A DNA stretch of 55,524 nucleotides. It comes from a virus. Taxonomy: Duplodnaviria > Caudoviricetes. The DNA is taken from IMG/VR virus record IMGVR_UViG_3300025723_000050, positions 1 through 55,524 of that record; one strand, given 5' to 3'. The translations under genes were made by a program, and so were the position numbers. Below, piece by piece: positions 15,683-19,978 of this stretch (positions are counted from its first letter, which is position 1; each line of letters begins with the position of its first letter). The notes beneath the pieces were generated by a model. It searched no databases, was not told where the DNA came from, and saw only the letters and a program-made list of their open reading frames with translations.

Positions 15683-15996
15683 GATATGTTGTAGACATTG
15701 ATGGTACTATCTGTACGCTTACAGATGGCAAGTATGAAAACGCACTACCCATAGAAAATGCTATCAAAAAGATTAATGATTTGTATTCTAAGGGCAATAC
15801 TGTTGTTTATTTTACTGCTCGTGGTATGAGCAGGACCACTAATGACCCAGTGCTGTCTGATAGGCTTTTCCGTGAGATTACAGAGCGCCAATTAGAAGAA
15901 TGGGGTTGTAAGTACCATTACCTAATTATGGGCAAGCCTTCTGGTGATGTTTATATTGATGATAAAGGAATCAACAGTGATGACTTCTTTAAATAA
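15679..15996 (+). CDS. Small HAD-family phosphatase
   Basis: DIDGT, TAR, GKP..D.YIDDK. Confidence 0.85.
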   Translation: MRYVVDIDGTICTLTDGKYENALPIENAIKKINDLYSKGNTVVYFTARGMSRTTNDPVLSDRLFREITERQLEEWGCKYHYLIMGKPSGDVYIDDKGINSDDFFK

Positions 15997-16336
15997 AGAG
16001 TTTGTAGAAAAGGGCTGGGGTTACGAAGAGATTCTCTGTAACTCTAAGAAGTACTGTGCCAAGATCTTGCATATGAACAAGGGCAAGAAGCTTTCTTACC
16101 ACTACCACAACATTAAAGACGAGACATTCTATGTAGAGAATGGCAAAGTCATTGTTGTGTACGGTGAGACAGATGACATTGAGCTAGCACAAGAGAAGGT
16201 ACTTAACGCGGGTGATCTTTTCCATGTACCAACAGGGTTGCGTCACAGGATCATTGGCTTAGAAAACTCACGGGTGTTTGAGTTCTCGACACAGCACTTT
16301 GATGATGATAGTATTAGAGTAATCAAAGGCGATTAG
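15980..16336 (+). CDS. Cupin (sugar isomerase/epimerase-like)
   Basis: ATG 15980 after AAGGA; KGWGYE, SYHYHxxKDETF, HR motifs. Confidence 0.82.
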   Translation: MTSLNKEFVEKGWGYEEILCNSKKYCAKILHMNKGKKLSYHYHNIKDETFYVENGKVIVVYGETDDIELAQEKVLNAGDLFHVPTGLRHRIIGLENSRVFEFSTQHFDDDSIRVIKGD

Positions 16337-16344
16337 TTTTACAA

Positions 16345-16416
16345 TCCCAGGTAGCTCAGCGGCAGAGCAAGCGACTGTTAATCGCTCGGTCGTAGGTTCG
16401 ATCCCTACCCTGGGAG
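16345..16416 (+). tRNA. tRNA-Asn(GTT)
   Basis: TCCCAGG/CCTGGGA acceptor; AGCGA/TCGCT stem with GTT; canonical T arm. Confidence 0.95.
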
Positions 16417-16421
16417 CATAA

Positions 16422-16508
16422 GGAATGATGGCTGAGTGGTCGAAAGCACCGGTTTGCTAAACCGGCGAGGTGTTAAAGCCTCCGTAGGTTCGAATCCTAC
16501 TCATTCCG
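16422..16508 (+). tRNA. tRNA-Ser(GCT)
   Basis: GGAATGA/TCATTCC acceptor; CCGGT/ACCGG stem with GCT; long variable arm. Confidence 0.95.
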
Positions 16509-16530
16509 CTGCATGCCATGCTAGTGTCTT

Positions 16531-16692
16531 TGAGGGATGGTGTAATGGCAACACGTCTCATCAGATAATGCTGTGCGTAAACGCTTAAAACATTCTGGGG
16601 TAGTGTAAAGGTAGCACCGGAGTCTTTGGAACTTCTAGCCCTCGTTCGACCCGAGGCCCCAGAGCTTGAAGGTTCGAGTCCTTCTCCCTCAG
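16531..16692 (+). pseudogene. Interrupted Gln-like tRNA (outer shell) enclosing another tRNA
   Basis: 5' TGAGGGA plus D arm (16531-16554) and T arm plus TCCCTCA-G (16668-16692) pair perfectly; the anticodon arm is replaced by an insert of about 110 nt. Confidence 0.8.
16594..16664 (+). tRNA. tRNA-Gln(TTG), nested
   Basis: TCTGGGG/CCCCAGA acceptor; GGAGT/ACTTC stem with TTG; CCTCG/CGAGG T stem. Confidence 0.92.
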
Positions 16693-16696
16693 CAAA

Positions 16697-16769
16697 CCGA
16701 CAGTAGCTCAGTGGTAAGAGCGGAAAGCTTATATCTTTCTGGCCGATGGTTCGATTCCATCCTGTCGGA
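16697..16769 (+). tRNA. tRNA-Ile(TAT)
   Basis: CCGACAG/CTGTCGG acceptor; GAAAG/CTTTC stem with loop CTTATAT; A73. Confidence 0.88.
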
Positions 16770-16784
16770 CTTTTATTATTGCAT

Positions 16785-16847
16785 GTTCAACTCCTACTGC
16801 CCGGACTCATAATCTCTTGGTCGGGGGTTCAATTCCCTCCTGCCGGA
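16785..16847 (+). pseudogene. tRNA fragments: T-loop remnant fused to the 3' half of a CAT-anticodon tRNA
   Basis: GTTCAACTCC remnant, then CTCATAA loop, GGGGG-TTCAATT-CCCTC T arm and CTGCCGG-A; no 5' acceptor strand or D arm. Confidence 0.7.
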
Positions 16848-16940
16848 CAATTTAAAACAAGCTCTATCTTATAACAGGTATTAGGCAATATGTTGCCTAC
16901 TGTCCAGCGTTTCTACGGAAACAATATAAGGAGTAACACG

Positions 16941-17708
16941 ATGACCTCAATGTTTGATTATGACGACTCAGTAAATATGGCTTTTGATGCCAAGATTGCT
17001 GGTAAAAACCTTGTCACCGCTAAGCACGAATTGCTTACTAAGACCGGTGATTTCTTGTTCATGGCACACAGTGACCGTGAACTTGCTTTCCGTATGCAGA
17101 TGGTTGAAGAGGACATCGAGCGCACTGCTCACCGTAGACTCGCTAACGTTAGTGACTCCAAGGCTAAGCTCGTCCGTGCCGTGCTAGAAGAGTGGACTCT
17201 GCGCCACGCATCTTGCCAGTTCTGCAAGCTTGCTTCTGATAAAGACCCCAATAGCAATAAAGACGTTCCTGACTACACGCCCAAGAGCAATGCCAATGAC
17301 TACCACAAGCACTACGATGGAAGTGATGAACCTCCTTGCACTAACTGTGGTATGCGTGGCAACCACTACTGCACAGGCAGTAAGGGTCACCCTAACACAC
17401 CTAACCCGTACAACCCAAAGAAGGGTCCTAACCCGTACAGCCCGGATAAGGGTCCTAACAAGGGTCCTAACAAAGATCCTTACAGAACTGACCCTAACAA
17501 GCCATTTACTCCACACCCCAACACAGCTCCTAACAAGCAACCTGACAACCCTTACAAGGGTCCTAACAAGGGTCAACCTGGCATCCCTAACCCGTACAAC
17601 CCAGGCAAGGGTAAGGATCGTCCTGAGACCAATATCATGCCTCCACACCCTAACAAGCGGCCCGATAATCCTGACAAAGGTCCTAACAAGCCCCCTTACC
17701 AAAAGTAA
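16941..17708 (+). CDS. Hypothetical protein: helical N-domain plus Pro/Asn/Lys repeat tail
   Basis: ATG 16941 after AGGAG; KGPN/PNPY repeats. Confidence 0.75.
   Translation: MTSMFDYDDSVNMAFDAKIAGKNLVTAKHELLTKTGDFLFMAHSDRELAFRMQMVEEDIERTAHRRLANVSDSKAKLVRAVLEEWTLRHASCQFCKLASDKDPNSNKDVPDYTPKSNANDYHKHYDGSDEPPCTNCGMRGNHYCTGSKGHPNTPNPYNPKKGPNPYSPDKGPNKGPNKDPYRTDPNKPFTPHPNTAPNKQPDNPYKGPNKGQPGIPNPYNPGKGKDRPETNIMPPHPNKRPDNPDKGPNKPPYQK
17390..17700 (+). repeat. Coding repeats (AAGGGTCCTAAC = KGPN; CCTAACCCGTAC = PNPY)
   Basis: Multiple dispersed and tandem copies visible in the DNA and protein. Confidence 0.8.
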
Positions 17709-17738
17709 TATCAACCTTTATTAAATCGTTAGGTTGAT

Positions 17739-19217
17739 ATGGATAAAACATTTAACTCTAAATACTCGTCGGGTACTGGTAGCATTAGTGGGAGTGACCC
17801 TGAATGGGGCACTGGCAAAATGGTCAGCAAGTCTCCTTTTGGGTTGCCTTGGTATGTTGACGAACCAGAAGATCTTAAGGTTATTCGTAGATCAAAAGAC
17901 CCCCATTGGCAATTTGGTTCAACTCCTAGAAGCAGAAAAGAACGTGATGAACTCGGTCGCCCAATAGCACCTGTTGAAAAGAGAGAAAAGGATACTTGGG
18001 AAGAATTTGATCCTGACGTACACAAACCTAGTTTTGCAGTCGATTCTGAAGGTGTAAAAGAAAAAGATCCAGCAGAACCAACCCCTCCAAAAACTCGTTA
18101 TACAAGCGAAGAGGATGCTCTTAAGCGTATTCTTAACCAACAGGGTCAACGAACAACTGATTTCCCCATTATCTATTCTCCAGAGGCACTTGAATTCTTG
18201 AAGGAATCAAGTGTTATTACTTTGTCACGTATTGAAGACATTGTTAAGCCAACCAGAAGAATTTTTAACGCTGCTGTTAACTCAGAAGATAATTATGACA
18301 CTGATAATCCTGAGAACTTGCAGGATGAATGGACTGATCGTACTCCTGAGGAAGAAGAAAAAGACCAAGCTGAATCAGAAGCATCAGAGGAAGAGGAAGA
18401 AGAAAATCAGGTAGGTAAGTTTACTTACGATGATAATCATTCTTTTACCCCTGCTGCTCCAGGGGTAGACGAAGAGCCCGAAAACGAAGACAATCAAGAA
18501 GAGGGTACTTCACAAGACAGCGGTGAAGAGGGTAAAGAAGACGAGGATATCGTCCCAATCCCAACAGCACCACCAAGGCCTAAGAAGTTTAAGAGCTCTA
18601 CGCCAAAAGTAATTACAGAACAAACTGCTGTCCCTCACAACCCTGAAAACGAAAGTTTTGATGAAGAAGATGAGAACCTTGCTCCTATTGCTGAATCAGG
18701 TGCTGCTAGAAAGCTAAAGCAAGATAAGAACCGTAAGAAAACTGTCAATGTTCCTCCTCACGCTGTGCAAGGGCCTGACCGTTTCATTGCTCACCTTTTA
18801 CGTGAAGACAACGAAAAAACACAAAAAATGCTTGTAAGAAAAAGTGACAAAAAAGGCATTACTTACAATGCTGCTCTTGATGATACCTTAAATGACTTAA
18901 GAGAAACTAATGAAAAACGCGAGAATATAAAAGAGCTTAGCAAGGCAATCCTTGACAAAGGCCTGTCCGATGACGGGTATGGCAAAGCAGTCACTAAAGA
19001 ACGTGGAGAAAAAGAAACTCACGTGCATTGTGGTTGTGAAAAAAGAGATGGCTTTGAAACGCTTGATAACATTGCTAAGATCAAGGGATCTGATCAGTAT
19101 AAGCAAGGCATCATTGATATCAAAAGAGATCCACAAGAATATGACTCTGATGGTTACTCAAAGCGTGACCGTATGGATAAATTTATTGCAGAATCTACTC
19201 GTTGTAAGGGTGACTAA
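17739..19217 (+). CDS. Large acidic, probably disordered hypothetical protein
   Basis: 492-aa ORF; starts MDKTFNSKYSS; E/D-rich centre. Confidence 0.75.
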   Translation: MDKTFNSKYSSGTGSISGSDPEWGTGKMVSKSPFGLPWYVDEPEDLKVIRRSKDPHWQFGSTPRSRKERDELGRPIAPVEKREKDTWEEFDPDVHKPSFAVDSEGVKEKDPAEPTPPKTRYTSEEDALKRILNQQGQRTTDFPIIYSPEALEFLKESSVITLSRIEDIVKPTRRIFNAAVNSEDNYDTDNPENLQDEWTDRTPEEEEKDQAESEASEEEEEENQVGKFTYDDNHSFTPAAPGVDEEPENEDNQEEGTSQDSGEEGKEDEDIVPIPTAPPRPKKFKSSTPKVITEQTAVPHNPENESFDEEDENLAPIAESGAARKLKQDKNRKKTVNVPPHAVQGPDRFIAHLLREDNEKTQKMLVRKSDKKGITYNAALDDTLNDLRETNEKRENIKELSKAILDKGLSDDGYGKAVTKERGEKETHVHCGCEKRDGFETLDNIAKIKGSDQYKQGIIDIKRDPQEYDSDGYSKRDRMDKFIAESTRCKGD

Positions 19218-19978
19218 TGTCAATTCATGATACACACTACGACCCAAAGAAGCGTTGCGCTATAGCAGACTTTGTAGACTCTCTTCCCGAAGATGAAAAA
19301 AAAGACTGGGCTTACTTAGGTAATTGCGGCATTATTCAGCGAGAATCTAGAAAAGCAAAAAAAGCTAGAAAACGTGGTGGTAAGAGTTGGGATAGCACCA
19401 TCGGCGCAGAGAACAAGCATGGTGAGATTATTATCACCCGCTCCGGCAATAGTCAAATCCATTCTTGTGTTAACCATGCTGCTTTGCTTTTGAATGAAGG
19501 CGTCAACATGGAGCACATGCTTCAGCATCAACGACCTGATCTAAATCCTGGTGAAAGCCCAGACACGCAGAACCGTTTCCACAACAGAACAGAAATGCGC
19601 ACTGAAAGATCAGACAAAGCAAAAGCTAGGCTGACTAAAAGAAAAATCTTGGAAAATAAAGAAAATAGAACGCGACGTAGAACTGATGCTGATGCTGATG
19701 CTACACCAGTGCCTAATCCAAATAGAACACCAGTGGAATACTTTAATGAAAAAGAGCTTAAACCAAAGATTAAATTCAATGCTGGCGAAACAGAAACGCC
19801 TACAGCTCCTACAGCTCCTACAGAAACCAAGCGTCCTGGTCGAGAGCGTAAGAACAAGCCAACACCTGCCGCGCCAACACCTGCCACGCCAACTAGTAGC
19901 CCAACAATTAATATTCCAAAAGCAAGAGTAAACCGGTTGTTTAATGAAAACGAACTCGAAGATGACGAAAGCTTATAA
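19217..19978 (+). CDS. Hypothetical basic protein with P/T-rich tail
   Basis: 253-aa ORF, TAATG coupled at both ends. Confidence 0.7.
   Translation: MSIHDTHYDPKKRCAIADFVDSLPEDEKKDWAYLGNCGIIQRESRKAKKARKRGGKSWDSTIGAENKHGEIIITRSGNSQIHSCVNHAALLLNEGVNMEHMLQHQRPDLNPGESPDTQNRFHNRTEMRTERSDKAKARLTKRKILENKENRTRRRTDADADATPVPNPNRTPVEYFNEKELKPKIKFNAGETETPTAPTAPTETKRPGRERKNKPTPAAPTPATPTSSPTINIPKARVNRLFNENELEDDESL

Follow-up and report, generated by a model that had tools for sequence, protein, structure and literature searches.

How did a phage tRNA array come to hold one tRNA-Gln gene inside another, and what is the short stretch of DNA that parts the inner gene from the 5' piece of the outer one? The locus lies in a window of 55.5 kb, the whole of a virus record that encodes a tail sheath and a portal about 40% identical to the portals of cluster C mycobacteriophages. 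A preliminary description, made from the letters alone, had seen in this stretch the C-terminal end of an HNH homing endonuclease. From the comparison with related sequences, we consider it highly probable that 33 bases of it are the last remnant of a gene for a 225-aa HNH protein, which would have belonged to a mobile cassette of nuclease and tRNA-Gln inside the resident tRNA-Gln gene.

The nested tRNA-Gln gene and the frame ahead of it

ARAGORN found four genes in the array (16345-16770): tRNA-Asn, tRNA-Ser, tRNA-Gln(UUG) and tRNA-Ile(UAU). In the resident tRNA-Gln gene at 16531-16692, the anticodon arm has been swapped for the end of a cassette (5 bases), a 33-base remnant and a second tRNA-Gln(UUG) (Table 1). 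The insert is flanked by the outer 5' half on one side and by the outer T arm with the complementary acceptor strand TCCCTCA (16668-16691) on the other, and 38 bases separate the outer 5' piece from the inner tRNA. Owing to the loss of its anticodon arm, the outer tRNA escaped ARAGORN in intron mode. A search of this region and of eight related loci against Rfam returned only tRNAs and tRNA look-alikes, and a scan of 15900-17100 for promoters and terminators gave four promoter-like sites (1.9 expected), none of them bearing on the relic.

Table 1. Parts of the nested tRNA-Gln locus, in window coordinates
Feature	Position	Strand	Evidence
Outer tRNA-Gln, 5' half (acceptor strand TGAGGGA, D arm, G26); dead fragment	16531-16555	+	7/7 pairs with 16685-16691
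TCTCA, retained left end of the cassette; the 691-base deletion starts directly to its right	16556-16560	+	Same place in full alleles
Relic of the HNH gene (S211-H221, last 11 codons before the inner tRNA)	16561-16593	+	Identical to L041 1468-1500
Inner tRNA-Gln(UUG), intact; replacement cargo	16594-16664	+	Rfam, ARAGORN; 71/71 against full alleles
Outer tRNA-Gln, 3' part (CTT, T arm GAAGG-TTCGAGT-CCTTC, TCCCTCA, G73)	16665-16692	+	97% against L001 4632-4666

The inner gene scored 49.9 bits with the Rfam tRNA model (cut-off 29 bits) and was typed as Gln/ttg by ARAGORN. It is identical at 44 of 71 positions to the resident tRNA-Gln of L001, a relative in which that gene is uninterrupted. Its anticodon stem reads GGAGT/ACTTC in the window and CAACT/AGTTG in the inner copy of L037, so that the changes compensate each other. 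Score and compensating changes identify it as a tRNA, and its charging and use are predicted.

The spacer at 16555-16608 had been described as a frame without a start codon that reads VSSDNAVRKRLKHSGVV and stops in the D arm of the inner tRNA. Translation bears this out: the TAA at 16606-16608 is made of tRNA bases 13-15, and no ATG, GTG or TTG precedes an internal GTG at 16573. From stop to stop, the frame covers 16543-16608 and reads WQHVSSDNAVRKRLKHSGVV. Only the part SDNAVRKRLKHSGVV (16561-16605) is derived from the nuclease (tblastn, residues 211-225, 100% identity), and the final four sense codons of the former HNH frame, together with its TAA, fall on bases 1-15 of the inner tRNA (16594-16608). 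The leading 'VS' (16555-16560) is composed of the outer-tRNA G26 and the cassette end TCTCA, and mimics the G-V-S of the family without being nuclease-derived. When the whole window was searched with the 225-aa protein (tblastn), the remnant was the sole match; the catalytic beta-beta-alpha-metal core and the Cys4 zinc site are not in the window, where residues 211-225 only survive. The window carries a remnant, not a member, of the HNH phrog_10822 / F-TflIV-like family.

The full-length ORF of this family, 678 bases in both L041 and L040, matched Pfam HNH with 21.9 bits (cut-off 21.4) and phrog_10822 ('HNH endonuclease') with an E value of 2.3e-55. In the enzyme, a helical domain at the N-terminus is followed by a His-Me finger with a Cys4 zinc site and, at the C-terminus, by a helix-turn-helix. 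We aligned 70 homologues, drawn from the best 120 of 7689 with E ≤1e-10. Residues C102, H122, N134, C139, N141, C142 and H143 are invariant in these 70 sequences, and no or almost no variation is seen at L208, G209, V210, S211, D212, N213, A214, R216 and K217; the motif LGVSDNAxRK also occurs in 8 of the 9 members that were aligned from viral contigs and cultured phages. The remnant, with SDNAVRKRL in frame, encodes SDNAVRKRLKH, the stretch that had been assigned at the outset to the C-terminal helix-turn-helix of such nucleases. This assignment was confirmed by the near-invariance of the motif in the 70 homologues and by the AlphaFold model (pLDDT 92.8), in which three helices end the protein (189-198, 201-208 and 212-221). 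In the model, the relic corresponds to the recognition helix, the last of a three-helix C-terminal bundle. The best match of the family profile among PDB sequences for the C-terminal part was the helix-turn-helix of LrpA (E 0.0023); when the HNH model was compared with the PDB by Foldseek, nothing reached E ≤0.001, and the best rows were HNH domains (McrA, Cap5) and small helix-turn-helix domains. Since the residues concerned are family-wide, the 33 bases descend from the gene and are not a spacer that a gene later extended into. The relic itself is inert and is now just the 5' leader of the inner tRNA; its interest lies in the design that it reveals.

As the preliminary description had it, the family sits in phage tRNA arrays: tRNA genes lie within 1.5 kb at all ten loci scanned (two with the cassette, eight of relatives). 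Most of the other relatives are located between tRNA genes, not inside one. The homologue of Enterococcus phage vB_OCPT_Bop, 40.7% identical, lies between tRNA-Asn and tRNA-Ser and carries the note 'H-N-H endonuclease F-TflIV'. Several members (P0002, P0009, P0011, P0071 and others) are named 'Zn finger protein HypA/HybF', 'transposase-like protein' or 'RNA-binding Zn-ribbon protein' by one source, which are probably misnomers that stem from the Cys4 motifs.

Full, empty and decayed forms of the site

As for the checks proposed at the outset, the peptide proved to be the end of an HNH protein (tblastn, 100%), and the longer alleles that had been predicted exist, with a full HNH ORF placed exactly behind the outer D arm and ahead of the inner tRNA, in five contigs of the same lineage as the window (v1) and one of a second lineage (v2). 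In G001 (L041) and G002 (L040), the order is outer 5' half, TCTCA, a 61-base spacer, the 678-base ORF (225 aa, coded by L041 838-1512), inner tRNA and outer 3' half, the end of the ORF overlapping the inner tRNA directly with no bases between them. Window positions 16561-16664, that is the 33-base remnant and the 71-base tRNA, are identical at 104 of 104 positions to L041 1468-1571, and likewise to L040. That the window should agree so fully with an intact HNH ORF, at its end, and with the adjoining tRNA is far beyond chance. The left block is identical to L041 at 29 of 30 positions.

Between these blocks the window has lost 691 bases (L041 777-1467), and with them most of the nuclease gene, as had been supposed; 33 bases are left of it. 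Full alleles read ACACG TCTCA CTGACTCG at the junction (TCTCA being L041 772-776), whereas in the window TCTCA is joined to TCAGAT, without microhomology. At the right flank, the outer 3' part of the window is shorter by five variable-region bases than that of empty and full alleles (GAGCTTTTGTTGAAGG in full alleles, GAGCTTGAAGG in the window); the longer right flank, with CTTTG inserted after 16665, was found in all four sequencing runs.

The first 24 bases of the inner tRNA were found in 6 viral and 15 metagenome contigs, and had no exact match in a collection of one genome per prokaryote species. Against 50,697 phage records, megablast of the region gave 2 records (10% of the query) and blastn 95 records (up to 19%), all at the level of tRNA matches, and no close cultured relative was present among these records. 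The relatives are without exception metagenomic contigs of freshwater origin, perhaps from few campaigns, and the five full v1 contigs may represent one phage population sampled repeatedly.

The first 24 bases of the outer 5' piece occur in 14 viral IMG/VR contigs, in each of which they start an uninterrupted tRNA-Gln(UUG) gene (one is cut by the end of the locus). Four of these contigs, L001, L002, L003 and L009, are the closest relatives by backbone (92% identity of a neighbouring cupin-like protein). Collinearity between L001 and the window runs from 13808 to exactly 16555 and resumes at 16666. Compared with the L001 allele, the window is without ten bases, GGAGCCTTTG, which form the 5' strand of the anticodon stem and the anticodon, and has 16556-16664 in their place. 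The site is thus polymorphic for presence and absence among related genomes, the target being intact where the cassette is absent. Empty-site alleles (joint 16554>16670) co-occur with the allele of the window in the same four of four runs; the window form, the empty-site form and the form with the longer right flank were found together in all four of these freshwater runs. Among the sequencing runs listed for the window, none was of RNA.

The second full lineage, v2, is represented by L095, which encodes a 225-aa homologue. The v1 and v2 nucleases share 141 of 227 aligned positions (62%), and 75 of the identical residues are specified by different codons, which suggests that the nuclease has been under selection. 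With respect to the inner tRNA (69/71 identical), the v2 gene is placed as in v1, and it lies inside another allele of the resident tRNA-Gln; its ORF stops in the acceptor stem of the inner tRNA, in another frame. Relics of v2, ending in GVSDNAIRKHLNNLG, are present in L035, L090, L099 and L102, and their distance from the outer D arm to the inner tRNA is 58 bases, compared with 56 in the window.

We classified the 20 records that contain the inner tRNA, after merging two pairs of contigs of equal length and identical printed sequence. Five are full v1 and one is full v2; the window is the one relic of v1, and four are relics of v2. In four others, the inner tRNA lies directly behind tRNA-Ser, the outer 5' half and the nuclease being gone; a small unrelated ORF precedes it in three, a protein gene reads into it in one (L088) and other sequence lies upstream in one (L098). 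Nine of the 20 records have neither a trace of the nuclease nor the outer 5' half. The outer 3' half follows the inner tRNA in all 18 records with at least 45 downstream bases. In L088 (1-1034), an unrelated protein gene with a 255-codon open frame runs straight into the inner tRNA; this contig shares window positions 16587-16810 at 98% and is without tRNA-Asn, tRNA-Ser and the outer 5' half. One site thereby documents the empty site, the invasion, the decay to a 33-base stump and the complete loss of a homing endonuclease gene.

The cassette is also far more similar between genomes than its surroundings. Measured per 100 bases, identity between G001 and G002 is 98-100% within the cassette and 37-87% in the flanks. 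In its backbone, the window shows about 78% identity with L001 and, downstream, about 79% with G001/G002, yet its part of the cassette is 100% identical to theirs. The outer halves occur as three alleles with complementary acceptor strands (TGAGGGA/TCCCTCA, TGGGGGA/TCCCCCA and TGGCAGA/TCTGCCA). Because a broken gene is no longer selected for pairing, the three alleles predate the insertion, which therefore took place in at least three separate entries.

Origin of the insert

It had been claimed that a cassette of HNH gene and replacement tRNA invaded the anticodon region of tRNA-Gln and later decayed. The full and empty alleles uphold the insertion, whereas active homing by cleavage we only infer, from the comparison of alleles. 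The natural target of the 225-aa enzyme would probably be the tRNA-Gln gene. On this model, the nuclease would cut uninterrupted tRNA-Gln genes of related phages that infect the same cell, and repair would copy the cassette in, with the tRNA halves and the neighbouring array serving as homology. The cargo tRNA would compensate for the destroyed resident gene, so that insertion would cost little. In the intact form, RNase P cleavage at the 5' end of the tRNA would cut the nuclease mRNA ahead of its stop codon, which may keep nuclease expression low, by analogy with what has been proposed for T4 segB. Once the site was occupied, the nuclease gene would be useless and would decay. The window would represent such a decayed stage, in which the 691-base deletion took the promoter-proximal spacer and codons 1-210, and the leftover would be a non-coding leader before the sole intact tRNA-Gln of the array.

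An alternative is that nuclease and tRNA-Gln moved as passengers of ordinary homologous or illegitimate recombination, the HNH protein acting elsewhere or otherwise. The untidiness of the insertion, with ten target bases gone and left junctions that differ between v1 and v2, would fit this, and the array recombines anyway, since the slot behind tRNA-Gln is occupied by Tyr, Met or Ile among relatives. Free-standing endonucleases are, moreover, able to cut far from their own gene (SegG/MobE literature), and an enzyme of this kind could act away from the tRNA-Gln site. The anticodon stem-loop of the cargo, GGAGT CTTTGGA, almost equals the resident GGAGC CTTTGGA, which would count against homing if the target were the anticodon arm itself, as the cargo should then be cut too. 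However, two diverged HNH lineages have the same architecture in three resident alleles, without any change of position within the anticodon arm; an HNH of phrog_2255 together with a tRNA-Asn lies likewise inside a tRNA-Asn gene; and the Enterococcus phage homologue is inside a tRNA gene too. We therefore regard passive transfer as unlikely.

Still less probable, in our judgement, is that the 33-38 bases were kept for a function of their own, for instance as a leader in the processing or expression of the inner tRNA. The independent deletions in v1 (the window) and v2 (L035, L090, L099 and L102) do end 33-40 bases before the inner tRNA, as such a function would lead one to expect. However, the v2 junction lies where it does because of a GGGA microhomology, L038, L093, L089 and L091 manage without a leader, having just CCAT between tRNA-Ser and the inner tRNA, and other contigs have unrelated sequence upstream.

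That the relic junction is a chimera of coexisting full and empty alleles, produced during assembly, we find hard to credit. Full-type, empty and relic forms do share k-mers and coexist in the same runs, but independently built Logan contigs from all four runs cover 16250-16590 with zero differences, crossing the junction 16560|16561 with 30 letters to its right (one fewer than the 31 required for bridging). In addition, there is no repeat common to both sides of the junction by which an assembler could be misled, and the right flank shortened by five bases recurs in L088.

The reading of the insert as an intron, with a spliced outer tRNA-Gln and an intron-encoded nuclease as in group I introns, can practically be dismissed: the insertion point in the anticodon arm is where bacterial tRNA group I introns sit, but neither a ribozyme core nor a spliceable pair of exons is present, Rfam finds no intron family in window positions 16000-17200 (E up to 1) or in L041, L035, L037 and L038 (E up to 0.1), the start codon follows TCTCA after a mere 61 bases and the ORF and the tRNA have no spacer at all, ARAGORN in intron mode makes no call, and ten bases including the anticodon are missing, so that no spliced product could be tRNA-Gln.

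Other nested tRNA genes and known systems

The nested arrangement is not confined to tRNA-Gln. On the reverse strand of L089 (174-780), a split tRNA-Asn gene encloses a 139-aa HNH ORF (phrog_2255, E 3.4e-23) and a complete tRNA-Asn; G001 has the same nest at about 509-660 of L041, with the ORF cut to about 22 bases. In L098 (2994-3744), the halves GCCCCAA and TTGGGGC enclose an ORF of 173 aa that resembles endonuclease VII (Pfam, 63.5 bits), together with a tRNA-Leu(UAA); immediately downstream of this nest comes a copy of the inner tRNA-Gln that retains an outer 3' half. In the record of vB_OCPT_Bop (ON125307.1; L103 1352-2179), the homologue hegA lies inside a tRNA-Ser(cga) called by ARAGORN in intron mode, which places an insert of 754 bases at position 40; no tRNA is annotated around hegA in the record, and the insert leaves no space for a ribozyme. 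We also searched for split tRNA genes with a script, the first version of which gave 7 hits (1 in reversed sequence) and the second 10 distinct hits in 106 loci (0 in reversed sequence). The second version missed the tRNA-Asn case seen by the first, and the hits in L014, L048 and L105 were discounted, their stems being AT-rich or unconvincing.

Behind tRNA-Ile(UAU), the window holds two orphan 3' fragments of tRNA genes (16771-16851): a piece resembling a T loop and acceptor (about 16786-16810), and a longer one with a CAU anticodon loop, T arm and acceptor strand CTGCCGG (16811-16851). About 42 bases of this stretch (joint 16800>16843) are absent from L088 and from contigs of two of the four runs. 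The fragments would be a further layer of replaced tRNAs, in this case for the AUA codon. Further downstream (16890-19978) follow three consecutive ORFs (272, 492 and 253 aa) with long low-complexity stretches rich in Pro/Asn/Lys or Glu/Asp, two of which were compared with PHROG and had no match.

Group I introns with homing endonucleases occur in tRNA anticodon loops and spread by cleaving empty alleles. The cassette shares with them the target region and a presumed selfish spread; they have a ribozyme and are spliced, whereas the cassette has no ribozyme and brings a replacement gene.

Endonuclease genes in phage tRNA arrays are of a known kind. According to the passages on SegB in PMC2330249, this free-standing GIY-YIG homing endonuclease is encoded in the T4 tRNA gene cluster and targets tRNA genes, and the end of the segB ORF is cut off by maturation of tRNA-Arg. 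An endonuclease gene in a phage tRNA array whose ORF runs into the next tRNA is thus common to both systems, and a further likeness is that SegB cuts the tRNA genes of related phages without segB and carries neighbouring tRNA genes along (same passages). By the same account, SegB differs in being GIY-YIG and not HNH and in recognising the T-psi-C region of many tRNA genes, and segB lies between tRNA genes, those passages describing no paired replacement of a disrupted gene. The F-Tfl enzymes of phage T5, like the 225-aa protein, are HNH endonucleases encoded in a tRNA gene cluster (Akulenko et al. 2004, as cited in PMC2330249 and PMC10644984); the link to them runs through the F-TflIV note of vB_OCPT_Bop, and the citing passages in these two papers contain no nested tRNA architecture. 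HNH genes also adjoin bacterial tRNA arrays (PMC8421152).

There is a likeness in design, though not in descent, to the mORFs of fungal mitochondria, which bring a foreign C-terminal gene segment, as in Allomyces atp6 and in Glomus atp6, atp9, cox2 and nad3 (PMC3630166, in the parts that treat these genes). In both cases, an endonuclease sits in an essential gene together with a foreign replacement and a dead native remnant alongside; here the foreign copy is the inner tRNA, with its 44 of 71 positions shared with the resident gene. As far as the same parts of PMC3630166 go, the fungal replacement is a portion of a protein gene fused in frame, whereas the cassette carries a whole separate tRNA and both native halves remain, and nuclease families and hosts differ.

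We found no prior description of a nuclease nested with a whole replacement tRNA in a matching tRNA gene in the main texts of open-access PMC and bioRxiv. At least three types of nuclease appear with this design: F-TflIV-like HNH with tRNA-Gln, phrog_2255 HNH with tRNA-Asn and endonuclease VII-like with tRNA-Leu. Whether cassettes of endonuclease and cognate replacement tRNA form a general, undescribed class of homing elements that enter the anticodon arm of matching tRNA genes is a proposal to which we give an even chance. If it holds, these elements would pay for the damage with a tRNA of their own, not with an intron or intein, and a main cause of the turnover, lateral spread and many tRNA fragments seen in phage tRNA arrays would lie in their recurrent invasion and decay. 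Beside introns and inteins, a spare copy of the broken gene would be a third route to harmless residence in an essential gene. It would account for nested and partial tRNA genes that confuse annotation, and suggests a route by which tRNA genes may pass between phages.
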